A DNA stretch of 64,000 nucleotides from Parcubacteria group bacterium GW2011_GWA1_40_21 (GCA_000996205.1 LBYO01000006.1:1969-65968); one strand, 5' to 3'. Shown: positions 13,202 to 64,000, counted from the stretch's first letter. The notes: generated from the letters alone by a model not told the origin. Numbers and translations are program-made.

Positions 13202-14128
13202 TCAGCTTCGACGGGTGCGGTGAAAATTTTTATGAACATCGCGGAGCTGTTTGTCCGTTACATGGGTGTAGATTTGGGTGGTGGCGATGTTGGAGTGGCC
13301 GAGGAGGGCTTGGACGGAGCGGATGTCGGCGCCGTTGCTTAATAAATCAGTGGCGAAGCAATGGCGGATGACATGAGGCGTGACTTTTTTGGAAATTCCG
13401 GCTTTGATAGCGTAATGTTTGACGATCCTTTCTATTGATCTTGGTGTCAGTCTTAGGTTGTAGGTTGTAGGTTGTAGGTTGTAGGGGGGGGTCCTAACAA
13501 ACAAGGCATCGTCCATATCTTTTCTTTTGTCCAAATAATTTTTTACTGCCGTTTTGGCTTCACTGGAAAGAAAAACAACCCTAATTTTTTCGCCTTTGCC
13601 TCTAATGGAAAATTCGTCCGACTTCAAACTGATGTCTCTTGGCAGGGAACAAAGTTCGGAAACACGTAAGCCTGTGGAAAAAAATAATTCTAAAATTGCT
13701 CTGTCTCTTAATCCCTTTAGCTCGCTAGTGTCTGGAGCATTCATCAGCCGATTAAGCTCCTCCGGCGTGATGAGGTCAAGCGACCTTTCTCCGATTTTCG
13801 CGAGCTCAATCCTCTCCGGAGGCAAAGTTTTAATACCCCGCTTTATCATATACTTCAGAAAAGAACGGAGGGCGATCAAATAATAATTCTGGGTATTTTT
13901 CTTAAGATTTTCCTTTCGGCCGTCAATTGTTTCCCCTGATTCTTGGCGATTCAGCCACAGTCTATATTCTCTCAAAACATCATCAGTAATGCCTTTCGGG
14001 TCATTGAGTTTTGAAAAGTCAAAAAATCTGCTCAAATACCTGTCATAGTTGGCGACAGTTTTGAGGCTTCTTCCTTTCTCAATTTCCAAATGCTCCAAAT
14101 ATTGCCGCTTTAATTGCTCTAGTGTCAT
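13202..14128 (-). CDS. Tyrosine recombinase XerC/XerD-like, with internal repeat insertion
   Basis: C-terminal HVIRHCFATDLL...LLGHSNIATTQIYTHV catalytic box; contains heptamer tandem repeat plus C8 tract at 13455-13491. Confidence 0.85.
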   Translation of the reverse strand: MTLEQLKRQYLEHLEIEKGRSLKTVANYDRYLSRFFDFSKLNDPKGITDDVLREYRLWLNRQESGETIDGRKENLKKNTQNYYLIALRSFLKYMIKRGIKTLPPERIELAKIGERSLDLITPEELNRLMNAPDTSELKGLRDRAILELFFSTGLRVSELCSLPRDISLKSDEFSIRGKGEKIRVVFLSSEAKTAVKNYLDKRKDMDDALFVRTPPYNLQPTTYNLRLTPRSIERIVKHYAIKAGISKKVTPHVIRHCFATDLLSNGADIRSVQALLGHSNIATTQIYTHVTDKQLRDVHKNFHRTRRS

Positions 14129-25768: not shown

Positions 25769-27286
25769 ATGGAAAATGCAAAACCGTTTTATATCCTTGC
25801 TTTCGGATTCACGGGCGGAATATTTTTGAACTCGTTTCACAAGATGGGTTTTTCTTTTTTCCTTTTATCTTTGCTTATTTCTTTGGCGATATTTGTTTAT
25901 GGAAAATTTCTACACTCTGACGCATTAAACAAAAAGACGATTTTTCTAGCATCTTTTTTTATTTTCGCTTTCGCTCTAGGATTATTGCGATATGAAATTA
26001 AAGACTTGCCCAACCGAGACACAATGCTCCAAGAAAATCTAGAACAGAAAGTGATTGTGGAAGGCGTTGTTTCGGACGAGCCGGACAAAAGAGAGAACGG
26101 AGTCAGACTGACTGTAAGTTTCCAAAATATTATAGATGAGGAAAAAACTTTTCCGGTAAAAGCCAAAGGTATAATGACCGCCGATTTTTATCCCGAATAC
26201 CGCTACGGCGACATCTTAAGAATAGAAGGGAAACTCAAGAAACCGCAAAATTTTCAGAATGAAAACGGAAAAACTTTTGACTATGTTTCTTATTTGGGTA
26301 AGGACGATGTTAGCTATGAAATATCTTTTCCAAAGATTGAGATCATCTCGCGAGGGAACGGCAATTTTATAAAAGCGAAATTATACGATTTTAAAAATAA
26401 ATTCATCGGTAATTTCAGCCAGTCCATACCCGAGCCGCACTCGTCTCTCTTAAGCGGACTTCTTCTTGGGGCGAAACAATCGCTAGGAAAAGACTTGCTG
26501 GAAGATTTCAGAAAGGCGGGGGTGATACACATCATCGTTTTGTCGGGCTACAACATCACGATAGTTGCTGAAGCAATTATGTCCGCTTTTTCTTTTCTTC
26601 CGAAATTCGGCAGTATCTCTTTCGGCGCCTTGGGCATTGTCCTCTTCGCGATTATGACCGGCGGAAGCGCGACTGTCATCCGTGCCTCGGCGATGGCGCT
26701 TTTGGTCGTCCTTGCCAGAGCGACAAGAAGGCAATACGACATCACTCGCGCTCTAATCATCGTCGGACTTTTTATGCTTGTTCAGAATCCCAAAATTCTT
26801 GTTTTTGATTCGTCGTTTCAGCTTTCTTTTCTCGCCACGCTCGCTTTGATTTATGTCTCGCCGATAGTGGAGAGAAAATTGCAATTCATCACGCCAAGAT
26901 TCAAGCTCCGAGAATTCGCCACCGCCACAATCTCAACCCAGATTTTCGTCCTGCCACTTCTTCTTTATAAAATGGGGGAGCTGTCGCTCGTCGGACTGCC
27001 CGTCAATATTTTGATTCTGGCTTTTATTCCTCTCACTATGCTTTTCGGTTTCTTGGCGGGAGCGGTGTCTTTCATAAGCGTCGCGATTTCTCTCCCATTC
27101 GCTTTCATTTCTTACGCCCTCCTTTCCTACGAACTAAAAATTGTAGAAATTTTTTCCTCCCTCCCCTTCGCCTCAATCTCAATCCCGTATTTCCCGATGT
27201 GGCTTATGATCGGGGTTTATGCGGTGTATGGGGTGGTGATTTATAGGATGAGAGATATTGCAAACTCCATCAGCACAGAACATTAA
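25769..27286 (+). CDS. comEC: ComEC/Rec2 DNA-internalisation channel (membrane competence domain only)
   Basis: Multi-TM; conserved HIIVLSGYNITIV...ASAMALLVVLA competence-domain blocks; lacks C-terminal MBL domain, which is encoded separately at 33315. Confidence 0.8.
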   Translation: MENAKPFYILAFGFTGGIFLNSFHKMGFSFFLLSLLISLAIFVYGKFLHSDALNKKTIFLASFFIFAFALGLLRYEIKDLPNRDTMLQENLEQKVIVEGVVSDEPDKRENGVRLTVSFQNIIDEEKTFPVKAKGIMTADFYPEYRYGDILRIEGKLKKPQNFQNENGKTFDYVSYLGKDDVSYEISFPKIEIISRGNGNFIKAKLYDFKNKFIGNFSQSIPEPHSSLLSGLLLGAKQSLGKDLLEDFRKAGVIHIIVLSGYNITIVAEAIMSAFSFLPKFGSISFGALGIVLFAIMTGGSATVIRASAMALLVVLARATRRQYDITRALIIVGLFMLVQNPKILVFDSSFQLSFLATLALIYVSPIVERKLQFITPRFKLREFATATISTQIFVLPLLLYKMGELSLVGLPVNILILAFIPLTMLFGFLAGAVSFISVAISLPFAFISYALLSYELKIVEIFSSLPFASISIPYFPMWLMIGVYAVYGVVIYRMRDIANSISTEH

Positions 27287-46154: not shown

Positions 46155-46263
46155 TAAAGAAGCCATCGCGGAATAAATTTCTAATTTCTAATCAAATTCA
46201 AATTTCTTAAACCTACAACCTACTACCTAAAACCTACAACCTTCTTCGCGCGTCTAGTATATT

Positions 46264-48128: not shown

Positions 48129-49700
48129 ATGAGCTTCGCCAAAGTATACAGCGCCCAAGTTTCGTTGCTTAAGGCGCAAATAGTCCATATTGAAGTTGAT
48201 CTGTCTAAGGGACTGTATGCTTTTTCAGTAGTCGGATTGCCAGATAAAGCGGTGGAAGAATCAAGGGATAGAGTATCCGCCGCGATAAAAAATTCCGGTT
48301 TCAAATCTCCAAAGCAGAAAAATCAAAAAATCGTTATCGCGCTCGCGCCGGCCGACCTTAAAAAAGAAGGGCCGGTGTTTGATTTGGGAATGGCTTTGGC
48401 TTACCTTCTGGCTTCAGAGGAAATAAAATTCAATCCCTCCGGAAAAATATTCCTTGGCGAGCTGTCTTTGGACGGAGAAGTCCGCAAGATAAGCGGGGTC
48501 TTGGCGATTGCGGAAGAAGCCAAAAAACGCGGGTTTGAAGAAATATATTTGCCTAAAGAAAATGCCCGCGAAGCGGCGCTCATTGGCGGCATAAAAATTT
48601 TTGGAGTAAAAAATATTCAAGAAGTCATCGCTCACCTCAACGAAAAACAGGCAGACAACGAAGAAGATGAGCAAACGGAAATTAAAATTAAACTTAAGCC
48701 AGAACATCCCACCAGGATTGAGACTAAAGAGGAAGAATGCGAAATAGATTTTTCTGAAATAAAAGGACAGGAAATGGCGAAGAGGGGACTGGAAATTGCC
48801 GCCGCGGGCGGACACAATATCGCGATGTATGGTCCGCCCGGCACAGGAAAGACGATGCTCGCTAAAGCTTTCAGTCATATATTACCGCCTCTTTCGTTTG
48901 ACGAGGTGTTGGAAATCACAGCCATACATTCCATAGCCAGAACGCTTCAAGGAGATTTGGTCAGCAACCCTCCGATGAGGTCGCCCCACCACACTGCCTC
49001 TTATGTCTCAATGGTTGGCGGTGGCGCGGTGCCGAAGCCCGGGGAGGTGACATTGGCGCACAGGGGCGTTTTGTTTCTTGACGAATTCGCCGAGTTTGAC
49101 AGACGAGTCATAGAAACATTGAGACAGCCGCTTGAAGAAAGGGAGATAAATATTTCGCGGGCAAAAGGCTCATTTAGCTTTCCGGCAAATTTCATATTGA
49201 TTGCCGCGATGAACCCGTGTCCTTGCGGAAATTACGGAACAAAAGGGAAGGAATGCGTTTGCGCGCCGATAAATTTGGTGAAATATCAGAGAAAAATATC
49301 CGGACCGATAATAGACAGGATTGATATGTGGCTTGAAGTTTCAAAAGTAGACCATCAAAAACTTTCCGACAACAAAAGCGACGGCGACACGACAAAACAA
49401 ATAAAGAAGAGAGTGGTTGGAGCGAGAGAAATTCAGAAAAATAGATTTTCTGATTCAAAAAGAGGAATAAAAACGAACAGCGAAATGAACACGCGAGACC
49501 TCGGCAAAATTATAAATTTAAAAAAGGAAGTCAAAGAAATTTTGAACGCGTCGGCAGAAAAATTGGACTTATCGGCGCGAGCGTATCACCGCATCATCAA
49601 GCTTTCTCGCACCATAGCCGACCTTGCCGGGGCAGAGGAGATAGAAACCAATCACATTCTTGAAGCTCTTCAATATAGGCCAAAAAAGATGGCTGTTTAG
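48129..49700 (+). CDS. comM: YifB/ComM Mg-chelatase-like AAA+ ATPase
   Basis: N-terminal Lon-like domain, Walker A GPPGTGKT, sensor motifs, C-terminal domain. Confidence 0.9.
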   Translation: MSFAKVYSAQVSLLKAQIVHIEVDLSKGLYAFSVVGLPDKAVEESRDRVSAAIKNSGFKSPKQKNQKIVIALAPADLKKEGPVFDLGMALAYLLASEEIKFNPSGKIFLGELSLDGEVRKISGVLAIAEEAKKRGFEEIYLPKENAREAALIGGIKIFGVKNIQEVIAHLNEKQADNEEDEQTEIKIKLKPEHPTRIETKEEECEIDFSEIKGQEMAKRGLEIAAAGGHNIAMYGPPGTGKTMLAKAFSHILPPLSFDEVLEITAIHSIARTLQGDLVSNPPMRSPHHTASYVSMVGGGAVPKPGEVTLAHRGVLFLDEFAEFDRRVIETLRQPLEEREINISRAKGSFSFPANFILIAAMNPCPCGNYGTKGKECVCAPINLVKYQRKISGPIIDRIDMWLEVSKVDHQKLSDNKSDGDTTKQIKKRVVGAREIQKNRFSDSKRGIKTNSEMNTRDLGKIINLKKEVKEILNASAEKLDLSARAYHRIIKLSRTIADLAGAEEIETNHILEALQYRPKKMAV

Positions 49701-50774: not shown

Positions 50775-51764
50775 TTAAAACGGATTCTTGGCGCCACGGA
50801 CTTCAAAGTGGAGGTGGGGGCCGGTGGATCTGCCGGTGGAGCCGACATAGCCTATTATATCTCCCTGCGCGACATACTGGCCTTGATAAGAAATATTTTT
50901 GGACATATGCCCGTACACTGTTTGGGTTTTATTAGGATGTTCCATTACGACATATTGGCCGTAACCGCCGTTCCAGCCGTAATTCTTGGTTATTAAAATC
51001 ATACCCGAAGCGGATGCGTATATGGGAGTGCCTGTCGGCGCCGCCAGATCAACGCCATTATACCCGTGAAGCCCTTGACTCTTTCTTCCTCCTTCAATCG
51101 GACGAATATAATAACCCGCATAAGATGGACTGTTCGCGCCTCGTATCTTTTTATTGGATCCTTTCGGGCTGGCGGCGGTTGGCTCTATTCTTCCGTTTGG
51201 AATGATTATCGTGTCGCCGACGGCAAGTGATGAGTCAGCGTTTAAGTTGTTGTACTGGAGAACTTCTTCAAGATCACCTTTATATTTTGCCACTATTTTC
51301 TTAATACTGTCTCCCGACTTTACCGTATACTTAACCCCCGAAATCGGAAGAATGATAAGAGTTTGTCCTTCTTTGATATATGAACCGCTTTTAAGGTCGT
51401 TAGCCCACTCAATGGTGCCCGCAGAGACATTAAACATTTTTGCGATTGAAGATATTGAATCGCCTTTCTGCGCTATATAGGTGCTTATCATTCCGTCAGA
51501 ACTGCCTTCTTCTATGTCGGCGGCAGTGCCGGAAGGGCCGGTTTCAGAAAGCAAAGCTTCGTCTTCAACTATGGTAATGTCTCCGCCTCCTTTTGCCGCA
51601 TTAGGGTCGGAATTCGGCACAGCTTGGAGCAGGGATATATTTTGAGAATTGGTTTCCGCCAGCAATACTTCTTGTTTAATGTCTTCGTCAGAAAATATGT
51701 TTGAAAAAAAAGAAATCACGCTCGCGTCAGCCGTCGCGGGGAAGCTAAACAGCGCCAAACTCAA
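50775..51764 (-). CDS. LysM-domain M23-family peptidoglycan endopeptidase
   Basis: Two LysM repeats (YIAQKGDSISSIAKMF..., YTVKSGDSIKKIVAKY...), M23 HxH (GPHLHFEV); annotated TTG start; frame stays open about 200 nt upstream without ATG, so true start uncertain. Confidence 0.75.
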   Translation of the reverse strand: MSLALFSFPATADASVISFFSNIFSDEDIKQEVLLAETNSQNISLLQAVPNSDPNAAKGGGDITIVEDEALLSETGPSGTAADIEEGSSDGMISTYIAQKGDSISSIAKMFNVSAGTIEWANDLKSGSYIKEGQTLIILPISGVKYTVKSGDSIKKIVAKYKGDLEEVLQYNNLNADSSLAVGDTIIIPNGRIEPTAASPKGSNKKIRGANSPSYAGYYIRPIEGGRKSQGLHGYNGVDLAAPTGTPIYASASGMILITKNYGWNGGYGQYVVMEHPNKTQTVYGHMSKNISYQGQYVAQGDIIGYVGSTGRSTGPHLHFEVRGAKNPF

Positions 51765-52180: not shown

Positions 52181-52263
52181 TTTTGGCGGTGGAGAATATT
52201 TCTGTTTCCTACAACCTACCACCTAAAACCTACAACCTTCTTCTTGTGTGGTATAGTTTTCCG

Positions 52264-54273: not shown

Positions 54274-54355
54274 TACGAAGAAGGTTGTAGGCGTTAGGTT
54301 GTAGGTTGTAGGTTGTAGGAAGAAAAAGTCAAAGTCATTTCTAAAAATAAATATT

Positions 54356-55249
54356 ATGAACAACTTTTCAAATTTAAAAGCTAAAAAATCGCTCGGGCAA
54401 AATTTTTTGAAATCAAAAAATGCCATTTTTGCGATGATTAAAGCAGGAGATGTGAGTGAGAATGATATCGTGCTGGAAGCCGGTCCGGGCAAAGGCGTCC
54501 TCACGGAAGAATTGCTCAAAAAAGCCGGCAAGGTCATTGCCGTTGAAAAAGACGATATGCTGGTAGAATTCCTCCGCGATAAATTTAAACTAGAAATAGA
54601 AAGTGGGAAACTAGAACTCGTTCACGGCGACATCTTGGAGTTTAATCCCGCAACCTACCACCTACCACCTACCACCTACAACCTTCCCCTCACAACCTAC
54701 AACCTTCAACCTACAACCTTCCCCTCACAACCTACAACCTTCAAACTTATCGCCAACATCCCTTATCACATCACCGGCCAATTTTTAAGAAAATTTCTGT
54801 CCGGCGACATTCAGCCTTCCAAAATGGTGATTCTCCTTCAAAAAGAAGTGATGGAAAGAATTATGGCGAATGACGGCAAAGAAAGCATACTTTCCATAAG
54901 CGTAAAAGCTTATGGCCGACCGAAAAATATCGGCAAAGTTTCCAAAGAAAACTTTTCTCCGAAGCCAAAAGTTGACTCGGCGATACTTCTCATAGACAAT
55001 ATCTCGCGCGATTTTTTCACTTCGTCTGTCCAAAATAACGAAGATAAATTTTTCCAGATTGTTAAAGCCGGTTTTGCTCACAAAAGAAAAATGCTGGCTG
55101 GAAACTTAGAACATTCCAAGGACTCCCTTTGGAAAGGGAGAAACCGAGAGGAAATTGAAAAGATTTTTGAAACTTGCAAAATACCGCCGAAATCCAGAGC
55201 GGAGGATATAAAACTGGAACAGTGGAAGCGCTTAAGTTCCATGCTTTAA
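54356..55249 (+). CDS. rsmA: 16S rRNA adenine dimethyltransferase RsmA/KsgA with roughly 30-aa repeat-encoded insertion
   Basis: LGQNFL, EAGPGKGVLT SAM motif, NIPYHIT; insertion 54649-54745. Confidence 0.9.
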   Translation: MNNFSNLKAKKSLGQNFLKSKNAIFAMIKAGDVSENDIVLEAGPGKGVLTEELLKKAGKVIAVEKDDMLVEFLRDKFKLEIESGKLELVHGDILEFNPATYHLPPTTYNLPLTTYNLQPTTFPSQPTTFKLIANIPYHITGQFLRKFLSGDIQPSKMVILLQKEVMERIMANDGKESILSISVKAYGRPKNIGKVSKENFSPKPKVDSAILLIDNISRDFFTSSVQNNEDKFFQIVKAGFAHKRKMLAGNLEHSKDSLWKGRNREEIEKIFETCKIPPKSRAEDIKLEQWKRLSSML

Positions 55250-55386: not shown

Positions 55387-55785
55387 TTAAGGCAAACCTG
55401 TTCCGACTTTATTCATAAGACCATAATTCGGCATAAGAACACAGGCTGTGCCCACATACTGCCAACAAACTTGAGGAGCCGCGGGAACATAGGAGCCTAA
55501 ATGCCAAGTGGCTGGAATGCCAATTGCAAAATCGCCATACAGAGTAGTATAGCCCGGCTGATAAACAAGAGCGCCGGTCTTAGGCAAAGGCAACGGAGAT
55601 AAAGGAGCAAACCATATCCATAAATTAGCGCTGCAAGTGCAAGGCAATGTAAAAATAACAAACCCGCCGAAAGGTAGCCCTGGCACCGCAGTCCCCGCTC
55701 CAATAGCAAACAAATTAACAGGTATTACCCACAGAAGAATCATTAATAAAATCAAAAATTTTTTCGTAAAAAAATTATATATCAT
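55387..55785 (-). CDS. Hypothetical secreted/membrane Cys-containing small protein
   Basis: N-terminal hydrophobic signal; Pro/Gly-rich. Confidence 0.4.
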   Translation of the reverse strand: MIYNFFTKKFLILLMILLWVIPVNLFAIGAGTAVPGLPFGGFVIFTLPCTCSANLWIWFAPLSPLPLPKTGALVYQPGYTTLYGDFAIGIPATWHLGSYVPAAPQVCWQYVGTACVLMPNYGLMNKVGTGLP

Positions 55786-56906
55786 TAAAATTTAATTTTA
55801 AAACTCGCTGGTTCTTTATTATAACCGTTCTCGTTCACAACATAAAACGAAACCTCTATCGGCATATTTTTCGCGCTTTTTTCGTTATTCATTTTTGCCA
55901 TTTGTTGCATTGCTGACGCTTTGAATTTTAGAGTTTTGCCGTCAAGCGAGGGTATATTCATTATGTTTCCGAACATTGAATATATGCTGTTTCCGCTTGC
56001 AGTAAAGCCTTTGCCTGAAACCGTTATTTCACTGTCAATGGTCGCCTCCGATGGCTCAACTTTTCCCACAACAGGCCTTTCTGACGGACTGTCCGTGACC
56101 TCAATATATATTTTTATGGTTTCGCTTTTACTGTTTCCGTTCCCGTTTGTCACCCAAATGCTGTATTCCCCGAGTGTCAAATCTTTCGGAACAATAAATG
56201 ATATTTTGGTTCCATTTTCACTGGCGGAAAGATCAGGAACGGAATTATTTTCCCCAAGATGAACAGTGTTTGATTTCGGGGTAAATCCTTCTCCTTCCAA
56301 AATGACAGTTTTGCCGGGCGACACTTGATACTCCGAAGTGGAGTAAGCTCTGACAATAGTGGAATTTTCAGATGAAGATGAAGAACTTTTTACCACTGAC
56401 AATTTTTTGGCTTCTGAACTATTGCTTTTGCTTGAATTCTGACTAGACTGGCTGGATTTTGAAGAATATTTTGACAAAGAACTGCTATTCGCGACAACAG
56501 ATTTTGAGGAGCTTTTGTTGTCGGCTTCCAGTAAATAATTCAGCTTTAACCGCGTTGCCACACCCACAAAACCCGTGCCTGATTTTAGCCCGAATGACTG
56601 CAAAACATCAGAAGCGTACATTTCTTGAAATTTTATAACCGCATTCTTGGTTAGTTGGCCGAAATAAGCGGTTTCATTGCCAGAAGATCCAGTGCCAGAA
56701 GAAGAAATTTTCGTAGCAGGATTTTTGTTTAAAAATTTCTGCAAAAATCTAACATCTTCATTATTATCCCCGATTTTAAGGTCTTTGTTAAAAATTTTAA
56801 CACCCTCTTCCGCTGAAACAAGCTGGAGTTCAAAAGCAAAAAGCTCCAGAGAAAAAAGAAGTGGGAAAATTAAGCCTAAAAACAAAAATTTTTTATAATT
56901 ATGCAC
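55785..56906 (-). CDS. Secreted protein with peptidoglycan-binding-like domain, Ser-rich linker and C-terminal Ig-like domains
   Basis: Signal peptide; LKIGDNNEDVRFLQKFLN...TAYFGQLTKNAVIKFQ PG_binding_1-like; poly-Ser linker. Confidence 0.5.
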   Translation of the reverse strand: MHNYKKFLFLGLIFPLLFSLELFAFELQLVSAEEGVKIFNKDLKIGDNNEDVRFLQKFLNKNPATKISSSGTGSSGNETAYFGQLTKNAVIKFQEMYASDVLQSFGLKSGTGFVGVATRLKLNYLLEADNKSSSKSVVANSSSLSKYSSKSSQSSQNSSKSNSSEAKKLSVVKSSSSSSENSTIVRAYSTSEYQVSPGKTVILEGEGFTPKSNTVHLGENNSVPDLSASENGTKISFIVPKDLTLGEYSIWVTNGNGNSKSETIKIYIEVTDSPSERPVVGKVEPSEATIDSEITVSGKGFTASGNSIYSMFGNIMNIPSLDGKTLKFKASAMQQMAKMNNEKSAKNMPIEVSFYVVNENGYNKEPASFKIKF

Positions 56907-57061: not shown

Positions 57062-58024
57062 TTGAAATCGCGATCTAAAAAAATAATTTTATTATTTTTG
57101 ACTTTTTCCGCGCTGGGAGGGGTTTCTTTTCTGTTGCTCAAACCTAAAAAAGAAGTGGCGACAAAGGTCGTGTCGGAAGTCAAAGTGATAAAAAATCCGG
57201 TGGAAGTTTTAGATATTGATTCCGATGCCGACGGGCTGAAAGATTGGGAAGAAACCTTGTGGAAGCTTGACCCAAAGAATCCCGACACGGACGGCAATGG
57301 CATACCGGACGCGGAAGAAGTCAAAAAGAAAATGGCGGAGATTGACTCAAAGGGCGAAATGGAAAGTTCAGGCGATGGCGCCGCGGAAAGCGAATCCTAC
57401 ACGACCGATACGGAAACGGATGTTTTAAGCAAGAAGCTTTTTGCCGAATATATAAATTTGAAACAATCGGGAAATTTCAACGAGGAGGCGGTGATAGCCA
57501 CAGTGAACAACTTGGTAGCCGAAGAAATTCAAAACAAAAAAGATACTCAGTATTATTTTCTAAAAAATATAAAAACTTTTTCCCCCGAAAACAAAACACT
57601 GTTAAAGTCTTACGGAAATTCTTTCGCTTCAATCCGAACCAAATACAAAAATCAGTATATTCAAAACCCATTGGTGAAAGAAGGAGGGGTTGCCAATTTG
57701 CTTGATCCGGAATTTCTTCAGGGATTGGTCAGAACTTCAGAAGTTTACAGAAATATGGCCGTAGAATTGTCAAAAATCGCGGCACCGAAAGGCCTGACTG
57801 ATACTCATTTGGAAATTCTGAATAATTATATGGCGAGCTCGGACGGACTCAAGGAATTAAGCGCGCTATCAACTGATCCTGTCTTGGGAATGATAGGGAC
57901 ACAGAGGCACATTGAAGCCGAAGGAAAAGAAAAAAACTTGTTAAGCGATGTGGCTGAATATCTGTCTGAAAACGGCATAATTTTCTCCGGAAACGAAGCC
58001 GGAAATATGTGGAACAATATATGA
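57062..58024 (+). CDS. Hypothetical secreted protein with Asp-rich calcium-binding-like repeats
   Basis: Signal anchor; DSDADGLKDWEE...DPKNPDTDGNGIPD. Confidence 0.45.
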   Translation: MKSRSKKIILLFLTFSALGGVSFLLLKPKKEVATKVVSEVKVIKNPVEVLDIDSDADGLKDWEETLWKLDPKNPDTDGNGIPDAEEVKKKMAEIDSKGEMESSGDGAAESESYTTDTETDVLSKKLFAEYINLKQSGNFNEEAVIATVNNLVAEEIQNKKDTQYYFLKNIKTFSPENKTLLKSYGNSFASIRTKYKNQYIQNPLVKEGGVANLLDPEFLQGLVRTSEVYRNMAVELSKIAAPKGLTDTHLEILNNYMASSDGLKELSALSTDPVLGMIGTQRHIEAEGKEKNLLSDVAEYLSENGIIFSGNEAGNMWNNI

Positions 58025-60174
58025 ATTTCTTTTTTAAAAACAAAAAAACACTTTCTTGTCTCTTAATCGTTCCGATTATAATATCTTTGGCTTTTTCATC
58101 TTTGGCGGTAACAAAAGTTTACGCCATTGATACTGTTCCACCCGTCCCCGTTTCGGACGATGCTTTGAGGTCAAAATTCGTCGGGGTGACGGTGATGGGC
58201 TATACCGTGCCGGGCTTCAGCTGGAACGGAATTTACAATCTAGTGATGAAAACATTGCTCGCCCAGATCACGGACAGCATAGTCAATTGGATAAACAGCG
58301 GTTTTGAAGGGAGTCCTTCATTTGTCACCGACCCGAAAAGTTTTCTCGTTGATGTCGGAGATGAAGTGGTGGGAGAGTTTATAGATGAAATGACTTCATT
58401 TGGCTGGCTTTGCGATCCGTACAGATTAAATATTAAAATCGCGCTGTCTTTGGGAATAGGCAATTTTAAACGGCAGAGAAAATGTACTTTGACTGGAATT
58501 ATTAAAAATTTTGATAATTTCGTTAATGGCACTTTCAAGGAAGGCGGATGGAAAGGCTGGTTTTATCTGACCACTAATCCAAACGCAAATCCCGGGACCG
58601 CTTTCTTGAGTATGCAGGCCGAACTTCAAAAAAGAATGCAACAAAAGAATGATTTGGAGGTTAAGAAGCTGGACTGGGGCAGGGGTTTTCTATCGTGGAG
58701 AACATGCGAGCAGTATGCCACAAAAACTTCCGCGCCGTCTGATGCCGGTCCTGGCCTTGAGTATACTGACCAAACCGATAAGAAGGATAAGTCCAATGAG
58801 AACCAAACTTGCACGAAATATAGCGACATAAAGACACCCGGCACGGTCATTGAAAGCCAGCTTGAACACACGCTTGGCACAAGCTTGAGGCAATTGGAGC
58901 TGGCTGATGATATAGACAAAATAGTCGGCGCACTTGTCCAGCAATTGGTAAAAACGGTTCTTACGAAAGGCTTGTCCAGTATGAATTCATCGGAAGGGTG
59001 GGAAGGCACATCAAGCGACCTTGAAGAAGAGAGCTCAAATACGAAAATAACCGGAACTTGCTCGGCTGACACCAGATCGGCCCTCACGGGAGAAACGGTT
59101 GAATGGACGGTTTATGCTGTAGGAGGTCCGTCTGGTAAAAGCCCTGAATACAAGTGGAATGGAGCTGAAATCAGCACGAATACTAAAACTGAAAAACGCA
59201 CATTAAGCATTGCTTATGATAGCGCTGGAACAAAGAAAGCGCGGGTAACAGTCAAAAAAGGCAATAAGAGCGCGACTATAAAATGCAGCGGTTCAGTCAA
59301 AGTTTCCGCCGGAGATGATTCTGATGTTGCTTCGGGAACTAACGGCTATTGTTCCGCCAACAAATCGGCGATCAAGACGGGCGGCAGTGTCCAGTGGAAA
59401 TGGACACCATACTCGTCCGACGGCTCTTACGACAGCGCCACTTACGAATGGAAGGATGAAAATGGAAACGCGATTGAGGATGCCGGTAGCGCCAAATCAG
59501 TCACCATCGCTTACTTTGAAACGGGGGAAAAGTCAACCAATGTGACAGTCACCAATGACGGAGCGAGTTCCGATTATGATTGCGGGGCGGTTGATGTTTC
59601 AGGCGAGGAAGAATCTTCATCGTCTTCAGAATCTTCAGAGATAACGGCTGATTCTTGCTCAGTAGATAAAACAGCCGCTCTGGTAAATCAAACAGTCAAA
59701 TGGAGCGCTGAATTGGCGGATAGCGGTGAAAGCGCTACTTATAATTGGCTTTCGGATGACACAGACGGTCCGTCTGGCGACACAAAATCAGTTGAAATCG
59801 GCTACACAACCGCCGGGACCAAATCAGCGAGCGTTGAAATAACAAAAGGCGACACGACAACCACGGTGTCTTGCTCAAATTCGGTTGAAATAACAAACAC
59901 CAAATTGTCCGCTTCGTGCAGTGTTGATCTTACGGCTGGAACCGTTGACACCGGAAATAACGACGGCACGGAATTCACTTGGACGGCGACGGCCTCCGGC
60001 TGGACTGGCGACTACGGCTATAGCTGGTCGGGAACGGACGGTCTTGTCGGAAGCGGAGACACGAATACGACAACATACACAGAAGCGGGAAATAAAACAG
60101 CCCGAGTGACAGTCACTTCTGGCGATGAAAGTGTCACGGTAAACTGCGGCACGGCTCGGGTGTTTTCAGAGTAA
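58009..60174 (+). CDS. Large secreted protein with four tandem Cys-bracketed Ig/PKD-like repeats (T4SS-locus surface protein candidate)
   Basis: Signal peptide; four roughly 85-aa repeats each beginning CS.. and ending ..C. Confidence 0.5.
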   Translation: MEQYMNFFFKNKKTLSCLLIVPIIISLAFSSLAVTKVYAIDTVPPVPVSDDALRSKFVGVTVMGYTVPGFSWNGIYNLVMKTLLAQITDSIVNWINSGFEGSPSFVTDPKSFLVDVGDEVVGEFIDEMTSFGWLCDPYRLNIKIALSLGIGNFKRQRKCTLTGIIKNFDNFVNGTFKEGGWKGWFYLTTNPNANPGTAFLSMQAELQKRMQQKNDLEVKKLDWGRGFLSWRTCEQYATKTSAPSDAGPGLEYTDQTDKKDKSNENQTCTKYSDIKTPGTVIESQLEHTLGTSLRQLELADDIDKIVGALVQQLVKTVLTKGLSSMNSSEGWEGTSSDLEEESSNTKITGTCSADTRSALTGETVEWTVYAVGGPSGKSPEYKWNGAEISTNTKTEKRTLSIAYDSAGTKKARVTVKKGNKSATIKCSGSVKVSAGDDSDVASGTNGYCSANKSAIKTGGSVQWKWTPYSSDGSYDSATYEWKDENGNAIEDAGSAKSVTIAYFETGEKSTNVTVTNDGASSDYDCGAVDVSGEEESSSSSESSEITADSCSVDKTAALVNQTVKWSAELADSGESATYNWLSDDTDGPSGDTKSVEIGYTTAGTKSASVEITKGDTTTTVSCSNSVEITNTKLSASCSVDLTAGTVDTGNNDGTEFTWTATASGWTGDYGYSWSGTDGLVGSGDTNTTTYTEAGNKTARVTVTSGDESVTVNCGTARVFSE

Positions 60175-60182
60175 AAATTTCA

Positions 60183-62273
60183 ATGAAAAAATTCATACCC
60201 TACATTTTAATAGCGGCGATGATAAGTGTTTTTTTGATAATTTCTTTTTCGGGCCCATTTTCCGGAACAATGTCAGGACCGAAAAAAGCTTTGGCATCAG
60301 AGGGTCATTGGTATAGTGGTTATTGGTATGACTCAACACTTGATGCTTTTGTTAAATTTGGCAAAGATGTTTACGATGAACCTTTACGCCTAGTTCCAGG
60401 TTATGCAGTAGGAGAAAATGTTGCAGCTTGGGGAGATTGGGGCAAAATAACCGACGCGACGATTGGTCAGATGGTCGCGTGGATTTCCAGTTTTACTTGG
60501 TATATTTCAGCCAAAATATTCACCTTTAGCGGTTTTCTTTTAGATTACGCGGTGGATTTCTCGGTGAAAGATTTTAAGGAGCATATAGACCAAATAAAAG
60601 TCATAAACACGGGATACAAAATAGTCCTCAATGTCGCGAATATGCTCTTTATTTTCATTCTGCTATACATTGCCATTAAGACGATATTAGGGATGGGGGG
60701 TGACACAAAAAAACTTCTAATCAATATTATTGTGGTGGCGCTTTTTATAAACTTCAGTCTTTTTATGACCAAAGTCATCATTGATGCGTCTAATATCGTA
60801 GCTATGGGATTTTACAATGCCGTGCAGACCGAAATGGGAACAGCTAAAGTCAATATGGATGGCAATGAAGAACAAAAAAAGCTAATATCCACCGGCTCTA
60901 TCTCCACCGCTATGATGGCAGGTTTGAGATTGCAAACCCAAATACCTTCTCCTGATTCGTCTTACAATAAAAAAGACTCCTACAAAGGTCTTACTAATTT
61001 CAACATAGCAATGAACAACTTTGGCGGTTCCGCGCTGTTTCTTATTTCGGCTTTTGTGTTTCTGTCCGTTGCCATTCTGTTTATTGTCAGGTTCGTTGCT
61101 CTTTTGTTTTATCTGCTTTTTTCTCCTGTCGCTTTTCTTGGAATGATTTCTCCTGAACTGAAAGAGTACTCTGCAAAGTGGTGGAAAGGTTTGCAAAGCC
61201 AAGCATTATTCGCCCCCGCTTTTCTTTTTATGGCTTATCTGATTTCTGCCATAGTTAATTCCGGTCAATTATGGAATGCGGTCGGCGGAGATGATTCCAC
61301 ATCTACTTTTTATGACGCTTTTTCTTCGTCAAGCCCCGGAGCTTTCAGTATAATAATGAACTATGTGATATTGATAGCTCTGATGATTGGCGCGCTTATC
61401 CTTGCAAAACAAATGGCGGGTCAGGGCTCAGCCGGAGTGTTAAAATACACCGGCAAATTCCAAAGCTGGGCGCAGGGGGTGGCGGGGAGAAATACACTCG
61501 GTAGGGCGGCTTATCTAGCGGGCAATAATAGATATATAGGTAAACTTATGGCAAAGTCTCCAACTTTGGGCACATTCGTCAAATCAAAGTTTGATAGCGT
61601 GGCGGATACAAAATTCGGCAGCAAAACTGGCTATGCGACAGCGCTGAAAAAGAACATTGAACAAAAGAAAAAAATGGCTGATTTTGTCGCTAAAAGCAAA
61701 GTAGGGGAAACAGACAAGCTGATAAGAAAAGAAGAAGATCGACTAGACAAGATGGAAGATCTAAAAGAATTGAAAGACAATGTTGATAAGGCGCAAAGGG
61801 AAGTAGAAAGACTTAGAAATCTGGAAGTGGACATGAGAGCCCTTGGATCGTGGACTAATGCTGACATAGCCATCGCTGATTCAGCGCGCGAAACATTGCA
61901 AAGAGAAGAAGCTTTGTTTGAGAATAGACTTGATGCAGAATCAAGGATAAAAGATGCTACATCTTACAAAAAGAAAGTTCAAGACAAAATGAAAAAACAA
62001 TATGCAAAAAATATTGAGTTTGCCAGCTGGGGTGAAGGTTTTGGCTTTTTAGATAAAATATTCCGATCAGGCGCAGACGCGGCGGCAGAGATAAGAAAAC
62101 CAAAAGGTCCTTATGATAAAACTTTTAAGGATATGCTAAAAGAGTACAACGATGAACAAAGTAAAACAGCAGGTGGCGCTGGAGGAGCTGGTACCGCAGG
62201 AGGTGGAGGGGCGACAGGCGCAACGGGAAGCGGGGCTGGCGGCACAGGTGGCGGAGGAACGGCTCATCCTTAA
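60183..62273 (+). CDS. VirB6/TrbL-like polytopic membrane protein with C-terminal coiled-coil and Gly-rich tail
   Basis: 6-7 TM helices in first 400 aa with TrbL-like spacing, charged coiled-coil, terminal (GGA/GGT)n tail. Confidence 0.5.
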   Translation: MKKFIPYILIAAMISVFLIISFSGPFSGTMSGPKKALASEGHWYSGYWYDSTLDAFVKFGKDVYDEPLRLVPGYAVGENVAAWGDWGKITDATIGQMVAWISSFTWYISAKIFTFSGFLLDYAVDFSVKDFKEHIDQIKVINTGYKIVLNVANMLFIFILLYIAIKTILGMGGDTKKLLINIIVVALFINFSLFMTKVIIDASNIVAMGFYNAVQTEMGTAKVNMDGNEEQKKLISTGSISTAMMAGLRLQTQIPSPDSSYNKKDSYKGLTNFNIAMNNFGGSALFLISAFVFLSVAILFIVRFVALLFYLLFSPVAFLGMISPELKEYSAKWWKGLQSQALFAPAFLFMAYLISAIVNSGQLWNAVGGDDSTSTFYDAFSSSSPGAFSIIMNYVILIALMIGALILAKQMAGQGSAGVLKYTGKFQSWAQGVAGRNTLGRAAYLAGNNRYIGKLMAKSPTLGTFVKSKFDSVADTKFGSKTGYATALKKNIEQKKKMADFVAKSKVGETDKLIRKEEDRLDKMEDLKELKDNVDKAQREVERLRNLEVDMRALGSWTNADIAIADSARETLQREEALFENRLDAESRIKDATSYKKKVQDKMKKQYAKNIEFASWGEGFGFLDKIFRSGADAAAEIRKPKGPYDKTFKDMLKEYNDEQSKTAGGAGGAGTAGGGGATGATGSGAGGTGGGGTAHP

Positions 62274-62303
62274 ACTAAAGATCTAAAATAATACAAATTA
62301 AAA

Positions 62304-63107
62304 ATGAATTATAGCGAACAAATATTAAAAGCCAGATTTGAACAGCTTCCAGAGGATGTGAGAAGCGCGATAACGGCTACGCCTTGGAATGAAAAATTAA
62401 AACAGATTTCAGACAAGCACAATCTGCACATAGACCAAGCGGGACATCTCGGAGAAGAAACGGCTATAGTGATGTTCGGTCTTGACCACACCGATAATCT
62501 AGTCGCAAACATTGCCAAACATGTTGAAGTGTCGGAAGAAAAAGCTGAAGCGATCGCGGAGGATTTGAATCGGGAAATTTTCTTGAAGGTGAGGGAGTCG
62601 CTTAAGAAAATATTTGAGGAAAGAGATGAGAGGGCAGGCGGTAGCTTTTTAGCTGGTAGCTTATTAGGGAAGACTGAAGAAAAAGAAAGCGAAACGGAAA
62701 CGGATGAGACCCTGAAAAGGGAAGACATTTTGCGGGAAATTGAGGACAAAGAACATCACAATCTGCCAGCCGTTAACAAGCAAGAACTCCACTTGGAGGC
62801 GAGGCCTCCAAGTGAGATTAGCGCGCAAGTTTCTTTTCAGAACCAAAAGATGGCGGACAGCGCCAAAAGAGACAAACCAGCCGAAATGATTGTTATCCGC
62901 CCCGAACAACCCCAAAGACAACCTGCGATGCCACAAGGGGAAGCAATGAAAACAATGAAGGGCGATATTTTCAAGAACAAGATGAGCGGAACAGTGAATA
63001 TGCCGAGAGAAACAATTGAGATAAATGACGCCAAGACGCCAGCTAAAAAGTTGCCATCGGATATTAGTAATAAAATAGATCCTTATCGGGAGAAAATAGG
63101 AAAGTAG
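62304..63107 (+). CDS. Hypothetical acidic protein
   Basis: 267 aa, highly charged; between VirB6-like and PrgI-like genes. Confidence 0.45.
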   Translation: MNYSEQILKARFEQLPEDVRSAITATPWNEKLKQISDKHNLHIDQAGHLGEETAIVMFGLDHTDNLVANIAKHVEVSEEKAEAIAEDLNREIFLKVRESLKKIFEERDERAGGSFLAGSLLGKTEEKESETETDETLKREDILREIEDKEHHNLPAVNKQELHLEARPPSEISAQVSFQNQKMADSAKRDKPAEMIVIRPEQPQRQPAMPQGEAMKTMKGDIFKNKMSGTVNMPRETIEINDAKTPAKKLPSDISNKIDPYREKIGK

Positions 63108-63303
63108 CTTCTTAGCTTGTAGCTTTTTAGGTAAGAAAAGAATTGAAGTGGAAATTTATCTTTTGGTAAAAATTTAAGTTATACTAAAGAGGAAAGCCTT
63201 TTATCAGAAGTGATGAAGATGCTCAACAAAATGCTTTCTTCTTTAAAAAGTTCTCAACTTTCTTAACCTAAAAAGCTAATAAGCTGCAAGCTAACAAGCT
63301 AGT

Positions 63304-63738
63304 ATGAAATTCCAAGTCCCGCAATTTATTGAAATAGAAGACAAGATATTCGGGCCTTTGACCTTGAAGCAATTTATTTACCTTGCCGGAGGGGGCGGAA
63401 TTTCTTTCGTCATTTATTCCATAATTCCTTACCTTGTCATAGCTTTATTTTTCATCATACCGGTTATGCTTTTCTCTGTTGCTTTGGCTTTCTATAAGAT
63501 AAATGGCAAGCCGTTCATATTCATTCTTGAGTCGGCCGTGAAATACACTTTGAGCAACAAACTTTATCTGTGGCAAAAAAGAGAAAAAGTTATAACAAAA
63601 AAAGACAGCATTTCCAACGACAACTCATCCCTCCTCAAAGTACCTAAACTGTCAGAAAGCAAGCTCAAAGATTTAACTTGGAGTTTAGATATAAATGAAA
63701 ATATCAATCCGATTACGAGAGATAGTAAAAGGTTATAG
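63304..63738 (+). CDS. PrgI-family (VirB3-like) small membrane protein
   Basis: FGPLTLKQFIYLAGGGGISFVIYSIIPYLVIALFFIIPVMLFSVALAFYKINGKPF matches PrgI family pattern. Confidence 0.55.
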   Translation: MKFQVPQFIEIEDKIFGPLTLKQFIYLAGGGGISFVIYSIIPYLVIALFFIIPVMLFSVALAFYKINGKPFIFILESAVKYTLSNKLYLWQKREKVITKKDSISNDNSSLLKVPKLSESKLKDLTWSLDINENINPITRDSKRL

Positions 63739-63904
63739 GTGCTAGGCGTTAGGTTTTAGGGGTTAGGAAAGAAAAGATAAGATTGGGAATATAAAAAATA
63801 TGTTATAATTTTTAAAAGTTGCAGGTTGCTGTTTTACAACTTTCTTCACTCTCGCCCTAAAACCTAACACCTATAACCTTCTTAAAAACCTACAACCTAA
63901 AAAA

Positions 63905-64000
63905 ATGCCAACCAAATCAAAAGCAACACAGGATTTCGTGCCGATCAAAGAGGTGAGGGACGGCATTGTTATCTTGAAAAACAATTCAATGCGGGCAATC
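63905..64000 (+). CDS. VirB4/PrgJ-like conjugal transfer ATPase (N-terminal fragment, truncated by window end)
   Basis: MPTKSKATQDFVPIKEVRDGIVILKNNSMRAI is the characteristic VirB4/TraE N-terminal box; follows PrgI-like gene as in Gram-positive-type T4SS. Confidence 0.5.
   Translation, partial: MPTKSKATQDFVPIKEVRDGIVILKNNSMRAI

Follow-up and report, generated by a model that had tools for sequence, protein, structure and literature searches.

The right end of the 64,000-nucleotide stretch of Parcubacteria group bacterium GW2011_GWA1_40_21 analyzed here (GCA_000996205.1, LBYO01000006.1:1969-65968; the whole stretch is referred to as the window) carries, at positions 57062-64000, what is very probably the upstream half of a chromosomal, vertically inherited and non-conjugative type IV secretion system (T4SS) of the Patescibacteria type, belonging to a Parcubacteria/Paceibacteria bacterium. 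This system is descended from the apparatus that single-membrane bacteria use for conjugation, that of mating-pair formation (MPF) type FATA. The evidence lies in the identities of the PrgI, TrsD, VirB4, VirB6 and pilin genes, in the order of the genes and its conservation, and in the absence of conjugation-specific genes nearby, and we favor a role in host interaction without transfer of the cell's own DNA.

Six co-directional open reading frames (ORFs) on the plus strand occupy positions 57062-64000, and these are present in the order and with the reading frames given by a first-pass annotation of the window, which had also predicted that the cluster continues beyond it. Extension of the contig bears this out: an exact-protein look-up with the PrgI protein identifies 22 public contigs, four of which (L002-L005) match the window without mismatches (100% identity) over up to 10,697 bp. 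Downstream of the window these contigs encode genes h, i, j, k, l and m, followed by yidC, rnpA and rpmH on the minus strand and dnaA and dnaN on the plus strand. The yidC-rnpA-rpmH|dnaA-dnaN block begins about 140 bp past the last cassette gene, with rpmH at the dnaA end and DnaA-box-like sites between dnaA and dnaN, such that the cassette lies between ksgA and this block and adjoins the replication origin. Counting the split VirB4, the whole cassette is made up of ten core genes, c to m, all encoded on one strand. In order, c to g encode a thrombospondin-type-3 (TSP3) anchor protein, a variable surface protein, an extended VirB6, a cytoplasmic protein ending in DPYRE, and PrgI/VirB3; h to m encode a TrsD-like protein, the VirB4 ATPase, a protein with three transmembrane segments, an Ig-like secreted protein, a VirB2-like pilin and a membrane-anchored protein. 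A further public record is a strain variant (L001; GCA_000995985.1, GenBank LBYE01000004.1); compared without gaps over 10.7 kb, it and the window differ at 147 positions, a count that may in part reflect a spacer indel.

To examine conservation, one genome per species was scanned, giving 80 loci with a VirB6 relative, mostly of Parcubacteria/Paceibacteria lineages; synteny was scored with phmmer using 18 locus proteins against the six-frame ORFs of these loci, many of which are truncated. The order uvrD-ksgA-[a,b]-c-d-e-f-g-h-i-j-k-l-m-yidC-rnpA-dnaA is seen almost wherever a contig reaches. Gene c is found in 61 of the 80 loci, always directly upstream of gene d (65 loci), and gene g in 63, directly upstream of the TrsD-like gene; the remaining counts are 62 for f, 60 for h, 57 for i, 38 for j, 47 for k, 43 for l and 40 for m. 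Identity among the VirB6 proteins of these loci is only about 28-50%. Chance does not account for the arrangement, which up to 65 of the 80 related genomes share, and its recurrence across loci identifies the six unnamed genes (c, d, f, j, k and m) as stable members of the cassette. The proposal that this is the conserved core of a conjugation/T4SS module is thus supported, with a VirB4 body present downstream and profile searches supporting both the PrgI and the VirB6 assignments, as described below.

Core components of the secretion apparatus

Gene g (63304..63738, plus strand) encodes a 144-residue PrgI/VirB3-like protein with two transmembrane segments and a hydrophobic stretch at residues 24-68. 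It was initially described as PrgI-like, and it matches Pfam PrgI (PF12666) over profile positions 6-87 of 91 with 46.1 bits, above the cut-off of 27. When the window proteins were searched singly against Pfam and NCBIfam, PrgI was the sole one to pass its cut-off.

Gene e (60183..62273, plus strand) encodes a 696-residue polytopic membrane protein of the extended VirB6/TrbL-like type, with six hydrophobic segments, a charged helical C-terminal region and a Gly-rich tail. Searched alone it has no Pfam match at E<=1 and no NCBIfam match. The VirB6 assignment made at first reading is supported at the level of the family, with TrbL/VirB6 (PF04610) matching 13 of 31 aligned homologues (best E 5.7e-8) and many of the 342 homologues found carrying precomputed PF04610 or PF19590 labels, and also by its fold. 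An AlphaFold2 model of residues 1-450 built from 74 sequences (pLDDT 76.4, pTM 0.71) was compared with the PDB using Foldseek, and ranks 1-5 are all chains of the R388 TrwJ/VirB5-TrwI/VirB6 stalk complex; the best is 8rt9_F (E 8.5e-4, probability 1.00), 7o3v_F has a TM-score of 0.50 normalized to the target, and matches past rank 5 have probabilities of 0.2 or less. From the modelled length of 260-272 residues we infer that the matched chains are TrwI/VirB6 and not TrwJ/VirB5. With its C-terminal extension of about 250 aa, gene e encodes an "extended VirB6" in the sense of PMC12857230.

Gene h runs off the right end of the window, where its first 32 codons are present (63905..64000, plus strand). 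The complete gene (L002 10602-11240) encodes 212 aa homologous to the N-terminal domain of VirB4, matching VirB4_plasma (E 6.2e-13) and positions 2-118 of the conju_CD1110 model; it carries a precomputed Pfam TraC-like label (PF26593) and scores 28 bits against NCBIfam TrsD/TraD, below the curated cut-off of 200. This segment had been taken for the N-terminus of a VirB4-like ATPase, and although the homology to that part of VirB4 holds, it is not the start of the ATPase gene but a separate TrsD-like gene.

The VirB4 ATPase itself is encoded by the next gene, i (L002 11273-13186, 637 aa), so that the ATPase body sought by extending the contig is present. It matches NCBIfam conju_CD1110 with 381.6 bits (cut-off 325) over model positions 185-733 of 752 and Pfam P-loop_TraG with 94 bits, and has Walker A (AKSGAGKS) and Walker B (LLVIDEA) motifs that are found in 55/55 and 53/55, respectively, of the full-length orthologues. 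Alignments of the orthologues begin at residue 34 of the 637-aa ORF, which makes the Met at L002 11372 the probable start of the protein; the annotated ORF reads 33 codons through a copy of a palindromic element described below. The VirB4 of the strain variant has been called shorter, at 598 aa, and the GenBank label on the VirB4 of this genome is "Type IV secretory pathway VirB4 component-like protein". The best NCBIfam models are of MPF-FATA types and all close homologues are from Parcubacteria/Patescibacteria, two results consistent with membership of the Patescibacteria clade within MPF-FATA.

The pilin is encoded by gene l, about 1.8 kb downstream of virB4. The predicted product is a VirB2-like protein of 210 aa matching T4SS_pilin with 39.8 bits; it resembles a pilin-like protein of Mycoplasma integrative conjugative elements (ICEs), and some orthologues also touch Pfam TrbC/VirB2. 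Among 44 related genomes, 14 encode a pilin with a C-terminal extension of about 150-200 aa (for example L014:16572-17450, L030:17032-17919 and L037:17624-18589) that is absent from the 210-aa pilin here. Nine aligned extensions share an invariant H, D and H-x-H and end in ...HWHV...; a resemblance by eye to the H...D...HxH zinc site of LAS-type peptidoglycan peptidases was considered and rejected, there being no support from Pfam or PDB sequences.

Cassette members outside the known component families

The most variable member of the cassette is gene d (58021..60174, plus strand), predicted to encode a secreted protein with a signal-like N-terminus. The ORF opens at a GTG at 58009 (721 aa), and the true start is likely the ATG at 58021 (717 aa), which is the start called in public assemblies, agrees with the homologue P0121 and overlaps the stop codon of gene c by 4 nt. 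It was first described as a 721-aa secreted protein with Ig-like repeats; the four Cys-bracketed repeats of about 75 aa are indeed present (cysteines at 351/426, 448/525, 550/622 and 637/713), but the length is likely 717 aa and only the N-terminal third is conserved. The protein scores 21.3 bits against Pfam PKD (cut-off 23.5) and 20.4 bits against PKD_4 (cut-off 27). Orthologues are conserved over residues ~68-334 only, a module of about 270 aa with two conserved Cys pairs and motifs including WINxGFEGxPxFxTDP and TPGxVIExQL. Beyond it the proteins diverge: in a set of 58 orthologues the C-terminal part varies in length from 1 to 644 aa and sorts into 31 groups that bear no relation to one another, with PKD, F5/8 type C, InlB B-repeat, Big_3/Big_9 or Bact_surface_Ig-like domains, and a close relative (53% identity) has two repeats compared with four here. 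From these domains the C-terminus looks adhesin-like. The family is large, with 6,174 clusters at 50% identity (E<=1e-3).

The N-terminal module of gene d belongs to no Pfam family, although a few members match DUF4141 within their first ~35-45 residues. A low-confidence AlphaFold2 model of the module (pLDDT 65.7, pTM 0.32) gave no fold match; a VirB5-like identity was considered for it and is not rejected on this ground. DUF4141 is a family of Bacteroidetes conjugative transposons, and in Bacteroides elements the DUF4141 gene lies beside traJ, the VirB6 analogue (gene tables, PMC10434189), as gene d adjoins a VirB6-type gene here. Only three members of the gene d family reach E<=0.01, including P0236 (32.7 bits, cut-off 30) and P0238; the window protein has no match, and the matching segment consists of the signal peptide and a short 'VPVxD' motif. 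We regard the sequence likeness to DUF4141 as a possible lead, not as a relationship.

Gene f (62304..63107, plus strand) encodes a cytoplasmic, mildly acidic protein of 267 aa (pI 5.45) with no hydrophobic segment, in agreement with the acidic protein initially placed after VirB6. An N-terminal domain of about 100 aa (residues 5-108) is conserved and is followed by a variable, unconserved low-complexity linker and, a few residues from the C-terminus, the sequence DPYRE(P), encoded at ~63078-63092. In an alignment of 23 orthologues D259, P260, Y261 and E263 are invariant and R262 is nearly so, and DP[YFWL][RK] occurs within the last 40 residues of 55 of 63 orthologues. Gene f matches no Pfam family. 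A DP[YFL] motif in the pilin or VirB6 tails was considered as a shared feature and rejected, as it is not conserved in those families.

The first gene of the cassette, c (57062..58024, plus strand), encodes a 320-residue membrane-anchored protein, and the secreted Asp-repeat protein of the first-pass annotation is confirmed as an ORF with a single N-terminal hydrophobic segment (residues 6-28) and Asp-rich repeats. The long start is supported by retention of the 'SKKII' N-terminus in orthologues. Pfam TSP3_bac matches 16 of 25 orthologues (best E 6.7e-14), by which the repeats are predicted, at the level of the family, to be bacterial thrombospondin-type-3 (Ca-binding) repeats; a PDB sequence-profile search matches the Ca-binding repeat region of Bap (E 4.6e-6), and there is also a conserved C-terminal domain without assigned function. 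Of the downstream members, gene j follows i and encodes about 130 aa with three transmembrane segments and one invariant Asp; gene k follows j and encodes a secreted protein of 346 aa with weak Ig-like signals; and gene m, the last of the cassette, encodes a membrane-anchored protein of about 414-438 aa, with faint PD40 signals in two orthologues. Apart from the Ca-binding repeat of c and a weak Ig match for k, PDB sequence-profile searches with families c, d, e, k and m and with the pilin extension returned coiled-coil noise.

Mobility and function

The locus has homology to conjugation genes of Gram-positive bacteria, and its best NCBIfam matches are to the CD1110 family, to VirB4 and pilin-like proteins of a Mycoplasma ICE and to the TrsD of staphylococcal plasmids, as would be expected if the locus were part of an ICE or of a degraded one. 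The surrounding genes speak for something else. Among gene calls with Pfam labels, made for the entire window and for the 10 kb past it, there is no relaxase, VirD4/TcpA-type coupling protein or element integrase, which resolves the choice between a conjugative element and a dedicated apparatus towards the latter; the window genes are of housekeeping type (S12, S7, EF-G, PNPase, RecJ, TIM, PGK, ComEC, a ComM-like ATPase, UvrD/PcrA, KsgA and toxin-antitoxin pairs), and the sole tyrosine recombinase, encoded 43 kb away (13202-14128), is of XerC/D-like type. The extended locus has no tRNA gene to serve as a target, the only direct repeats flanking it belong to a heptamer repeat that is dispersed genome-wide, and the checks of composition show no GC shift (0.40-0.46 in the locus, 0.34-0.45 elsewhere in the window). 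The same chromosomal slot, from ksgA to yidC-rnpA-dnaA, is occupied in dozens of species, and relaxases were found in only 103 of 3,035 genomes (Quiñonero-Coronel et al. 2025, Microb Genom, PMC12102498). We consider a mobile element highly improbable and reject that interpretation. The division of VirB4 into two ORFs with a copy of a ~110-nt hairpin repeat between them could alternatively mark a decaying system, a pseudogenized remnant, but we find this scarcely credible. TrsD and VirB4 are in separate ORFs in all 58 orthologous loci, in all three relative frames, so that the split is ancestral; the P-loop motifs are intact, and the sequence is identical in four independent assemblies, by which a frameshift, a pseudogene and an assembly artefact are all rejected. 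A separate TrsD gene is moreover known from pGO1-type plasmids, and among the T4SS components of Patescibacteria TrsD ranks first in abundance (PMC12102498).

Taking the locus as a dedicated apparatus, a plausible mechanism can be outlined. TrsD and VirB4 would dock on VirB3 and VirB6 in the membrane and power assembly of a channel and of a short pilus or conduit of VirB2 type that crosses the single-membrane envelope. The products of c, d, k and m, being secreted or anchored, would form or decorate its extracellular part, with gene d, by virtue of its variable and adhesin-like C-terminus, being the likeliest element to bind and contact the host bacterium. The apparatus would then move macromolecules between epibiont and host, and not the cell's own DNA. 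A more specific version, which we offer tentatively and think has rather less than an even chance of being correct, is that Paceibacteria have a fixed ten-gene T4SS in which the six unannotated members stand in for VirB8, VirB5 and adhesin functions that are otherwise missing. Host recognition would fall to gene d, with the constant N-terminal module docking on the VirB6 and pilin stalk and the C-terminus swapped between species according to host, much as in a tip adhesin of VirB5 type or the receptor-binding protein of a phage. The gene f product would be a cytoplasmic adaptor or a substrate that TrsD or VirB4 recognizes by way of its conserved DPYRE peptide.

The direction of transport could instead be inward, with host DNA or nucleotides taken up as by Helicobacter pylori ComB or the archaeal Ced system, feeding a cell unable to make nucleotides. 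The genes involved would be the same as those of the apparatus proposed above and only direction and substrate would differ; the absence of a relaxase fits an importer, the same window encodes ComEC (25769-27286, with DUF4131 and Competence domains) and a ComM-like Mg-chelatase-family ATPase (48129-49700), and this role has been proposed for the T4SS of Saccharibacteria (PMC11665869). However, the match to CedB is weak (36.6 bits, cut-off 700), the ComEC and ComM-like genes are 8-31 kb away in a housekeeping context, and no VirB7-10 homologues as in ComB-type import are seen in the locus. In Southlakia epibionticum deletion of comEC abolishes competence with viability kept (PMC12857230), and since comEC is thus dispensable and the T4SS essential, the essential role is not exerted via ComEC. 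We therefore view import as an improbable alternative, noting that export and import are not separable with the present data.

Several points weigh against the interpretation as a non-conjugative apparatus acting on a host. Each step of the mechanism above is drawn from homology, and the data on essentiality come from Saccharimonadia, which is another class (PMC10633639). Placement of VirB4 in the Patescibacteria clade is putative, and no VirB8-like or VirB1-like component is recognized in the cassette. VirD4-like genes are far from virB4 in most Patescibacteria (PMC12102498), and as the search here for a coupling protein and a relaxase covered the window and 10 kb beyond, either may be encoded elsewhere in the genome. 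Finally, the synteny derives in part from the generally syntenic origin region: a LysM-M23 gene and the ComM-like gene upstream are conserved as well, and position alone is for this reason weaker evidence than it appears.

Neighboring sequences and comparison with known systems

Two genes, a and b (55387..56906, minus strand), are divergent from the cassette and are of uncertain membership of the T4SS. Gene a encodes a small, secreted, Cys-containing protein of 132 aa and is at this position in 22 of the 80 loci; gene b encodes 373 aa with PG_binding_1, a Ser-rich linker and Ig-like domains and is present in 26. Upstream of uvrD, a gene annotated by Pfam as a LysM and Peptidase_M23 cell-wall hydrolase (50775..51764, minus strand) is kept in 40 related loci. 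Some VirB1-like proteins carry M23/LysM domains (PMC12102498), and by position this hydrolase is a possible VirB1-type helper for opening the cell wall; the link is positional only, given that synteny extends across the entire region near the origin. In 29 related genomes synteny with the T4SS locus also includes the ComM-like gene.

The spacers on either side of gene g contain inverted repeats. In the f|g spacer (63107..63303) arms at 63120-63140 and 63258-63278 surround AT-rich, promoter-like DNA, and in the g|h spacer (63729..63904) 25-nt inverted arms of heptamer repeats (63729-63761 and 63855-63880) flank an AT-rich segment holding TGTTATAAT. The PrgI|TrsD spacer of the strain variant has 21 extra bases, showing that this spacer varies in length between close strains. 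Rfam matches to the spacers were dismissed as spurious miRNA-precursor hairpins, all below gathering scores. The heptamer is dispersed (AACCTAC / ACCTACA variants, AGGTTGT on the opposite strand), with ACCT(N1-2)AACCT occurring 21 times, compared with 0.84 in shuffles. Sites in the window are at 13455-13480, 14261, 34158, 41066, 46211-46240, 52210-52240, 54290-54320, 54650-54745, 63730-63765 and 63855-63900, and the arrays are often inverted pairs enclosing ~100 nt of intergenic sequence that is AT-rich and promoter-like; the f|g and g|h spacers are two such cases. The array at 54650-54745 is in frame inside ksgA (54356-55249), where it encodes a 'PTTYNL'-type insert of about 35 aa; KsgA is 297 aa here, and the median in related genomes is 262 aa.

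A second repeat is a near-perfect palindromic element of about 110 nt after the last cassette gene (L002 16920-17030, window-equivalent ~70223-70333), with a predicted RNA fold of -62.9 kcal/mol (z -13.5). A degraded, 80%-identical copy (z -6.6) is located in the TrsD|VirB4 spacer (L002 11245-11360, window-equivalent ~64548-64663), and there is no copy within the 64-kb window. The element looks like a miniature inverted-repeat transposable element.

Most of the ultra-small candidate phyla radiation bacteria carry a chromosomal T4SS cluster next to the replication origin. A Patescibacteria-specific VirB4 clade has been described that is nested in MPF-FATA, with TrsD as the most frequent partner, with PrgI, VirB6 and VirB2-like pilins near virB4, with relaxases almost absent and, in Paceibacteria, with the locus near dnaA, dnaN, rnpA, ksgA and rpmH (PMC12102498). 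The locus described here has the same constitution, with a separate TrsD-like gene together with VirB4, PrgI/VirB3, VirB6 and a VirB2-like pilin, no nearby relaxase or type IV coupling protein, and the same slot by dnaA, dnaN, rnpA, rpmH and ksgA. Since its architecture is that of Quiñonero-Coronel et al., the identification is correct and already known in kind; the locus is no new kind of system but the Patescibacteria T4SS described in 2023-2025. None of its differences is essential. It has one pilin gene, compared with arrays of 2-11 in Saccharimonadia and Microgenomatia. Genes c, d, f, j, k and m match none of the T4SS components tested, and in the synteny figure of PMC12102498 genes without profile matches are drawn in grey; that study reports no adhesins, whereas gene d here looks adhesin-like. 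The modest additions made here are the six uncharacterized conserved cassette genes, the conserved N-terminal module and variable C-terminus of gene d, and the DPYRE sequence of gene f.

Among better-studied systems, those of MPF-FATA are the closest. The VirB6-VirB3-VirB4 order is that of prgH-prgI-prgJ of pCF10, VirB4 scores above the cut-off of the Clostridioides difficile CTn2 CD1110 family, a separate TrsD resembling the VirB4 N-terminus is present as in TrsC-TrsD-TrsE of pGO1/pSK41, and the envelope is single-membraned, an outer-membrane core of VirB7/9/10 being absent. In contrast to these systems, no relaxase, coupling protein, VirB8-like (PrgL) protein or PrgK-type hydrolase is recognized here, a VirB2-like pilin is present that Gram-positive systems lack, and the locus is chromosomal, by the origin and vertically inherited. 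With the R388/Agrobacterium MPF-T systems it shares the membrane-domain fold of gene e, whose model is closest to the R388 VirB5-VirB6 stalk chains; the similarity is modest (TM-scores of 0.41-0.50 normalized to the target), gene e has the extension of about 250 aa, and unlike those systems the locus has no homologues of VirB5, 7, 8, 9, 10 or 11.

In Saccharibacteria the T4SS (SEML1_0006-0019) is essential for epibiotic growth of Southlakia epibionticum, and pilins but no coupling or relaxase proteins were noted there (Wang et al. 2023, Cell, PMC10633639). Two ideas for its function, delivery of effectors and uptake of DNA or nucleotides, are discussed in reviews (PMC11665869, PMC12857230), and a 2024 perspective calls the role of the T4SS "completely unknown" (PMC11665869).

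Few machines have been shown to be essential to a candidate-phyla-radiation bacterium living as an epibiont, and the T4SS is one of them; the locus described here is a clean and complete example from Paceibacteria, the largest class. To our knowledge no genetics exist for Paceibacteria, and the comparison narrows the parts worth testing to the six unnamed genes, with genes d and f among them. The variable end of gene d could explain host specificity, and the conserved C-terminal peptide of gene f could be a docking or secretion signal.

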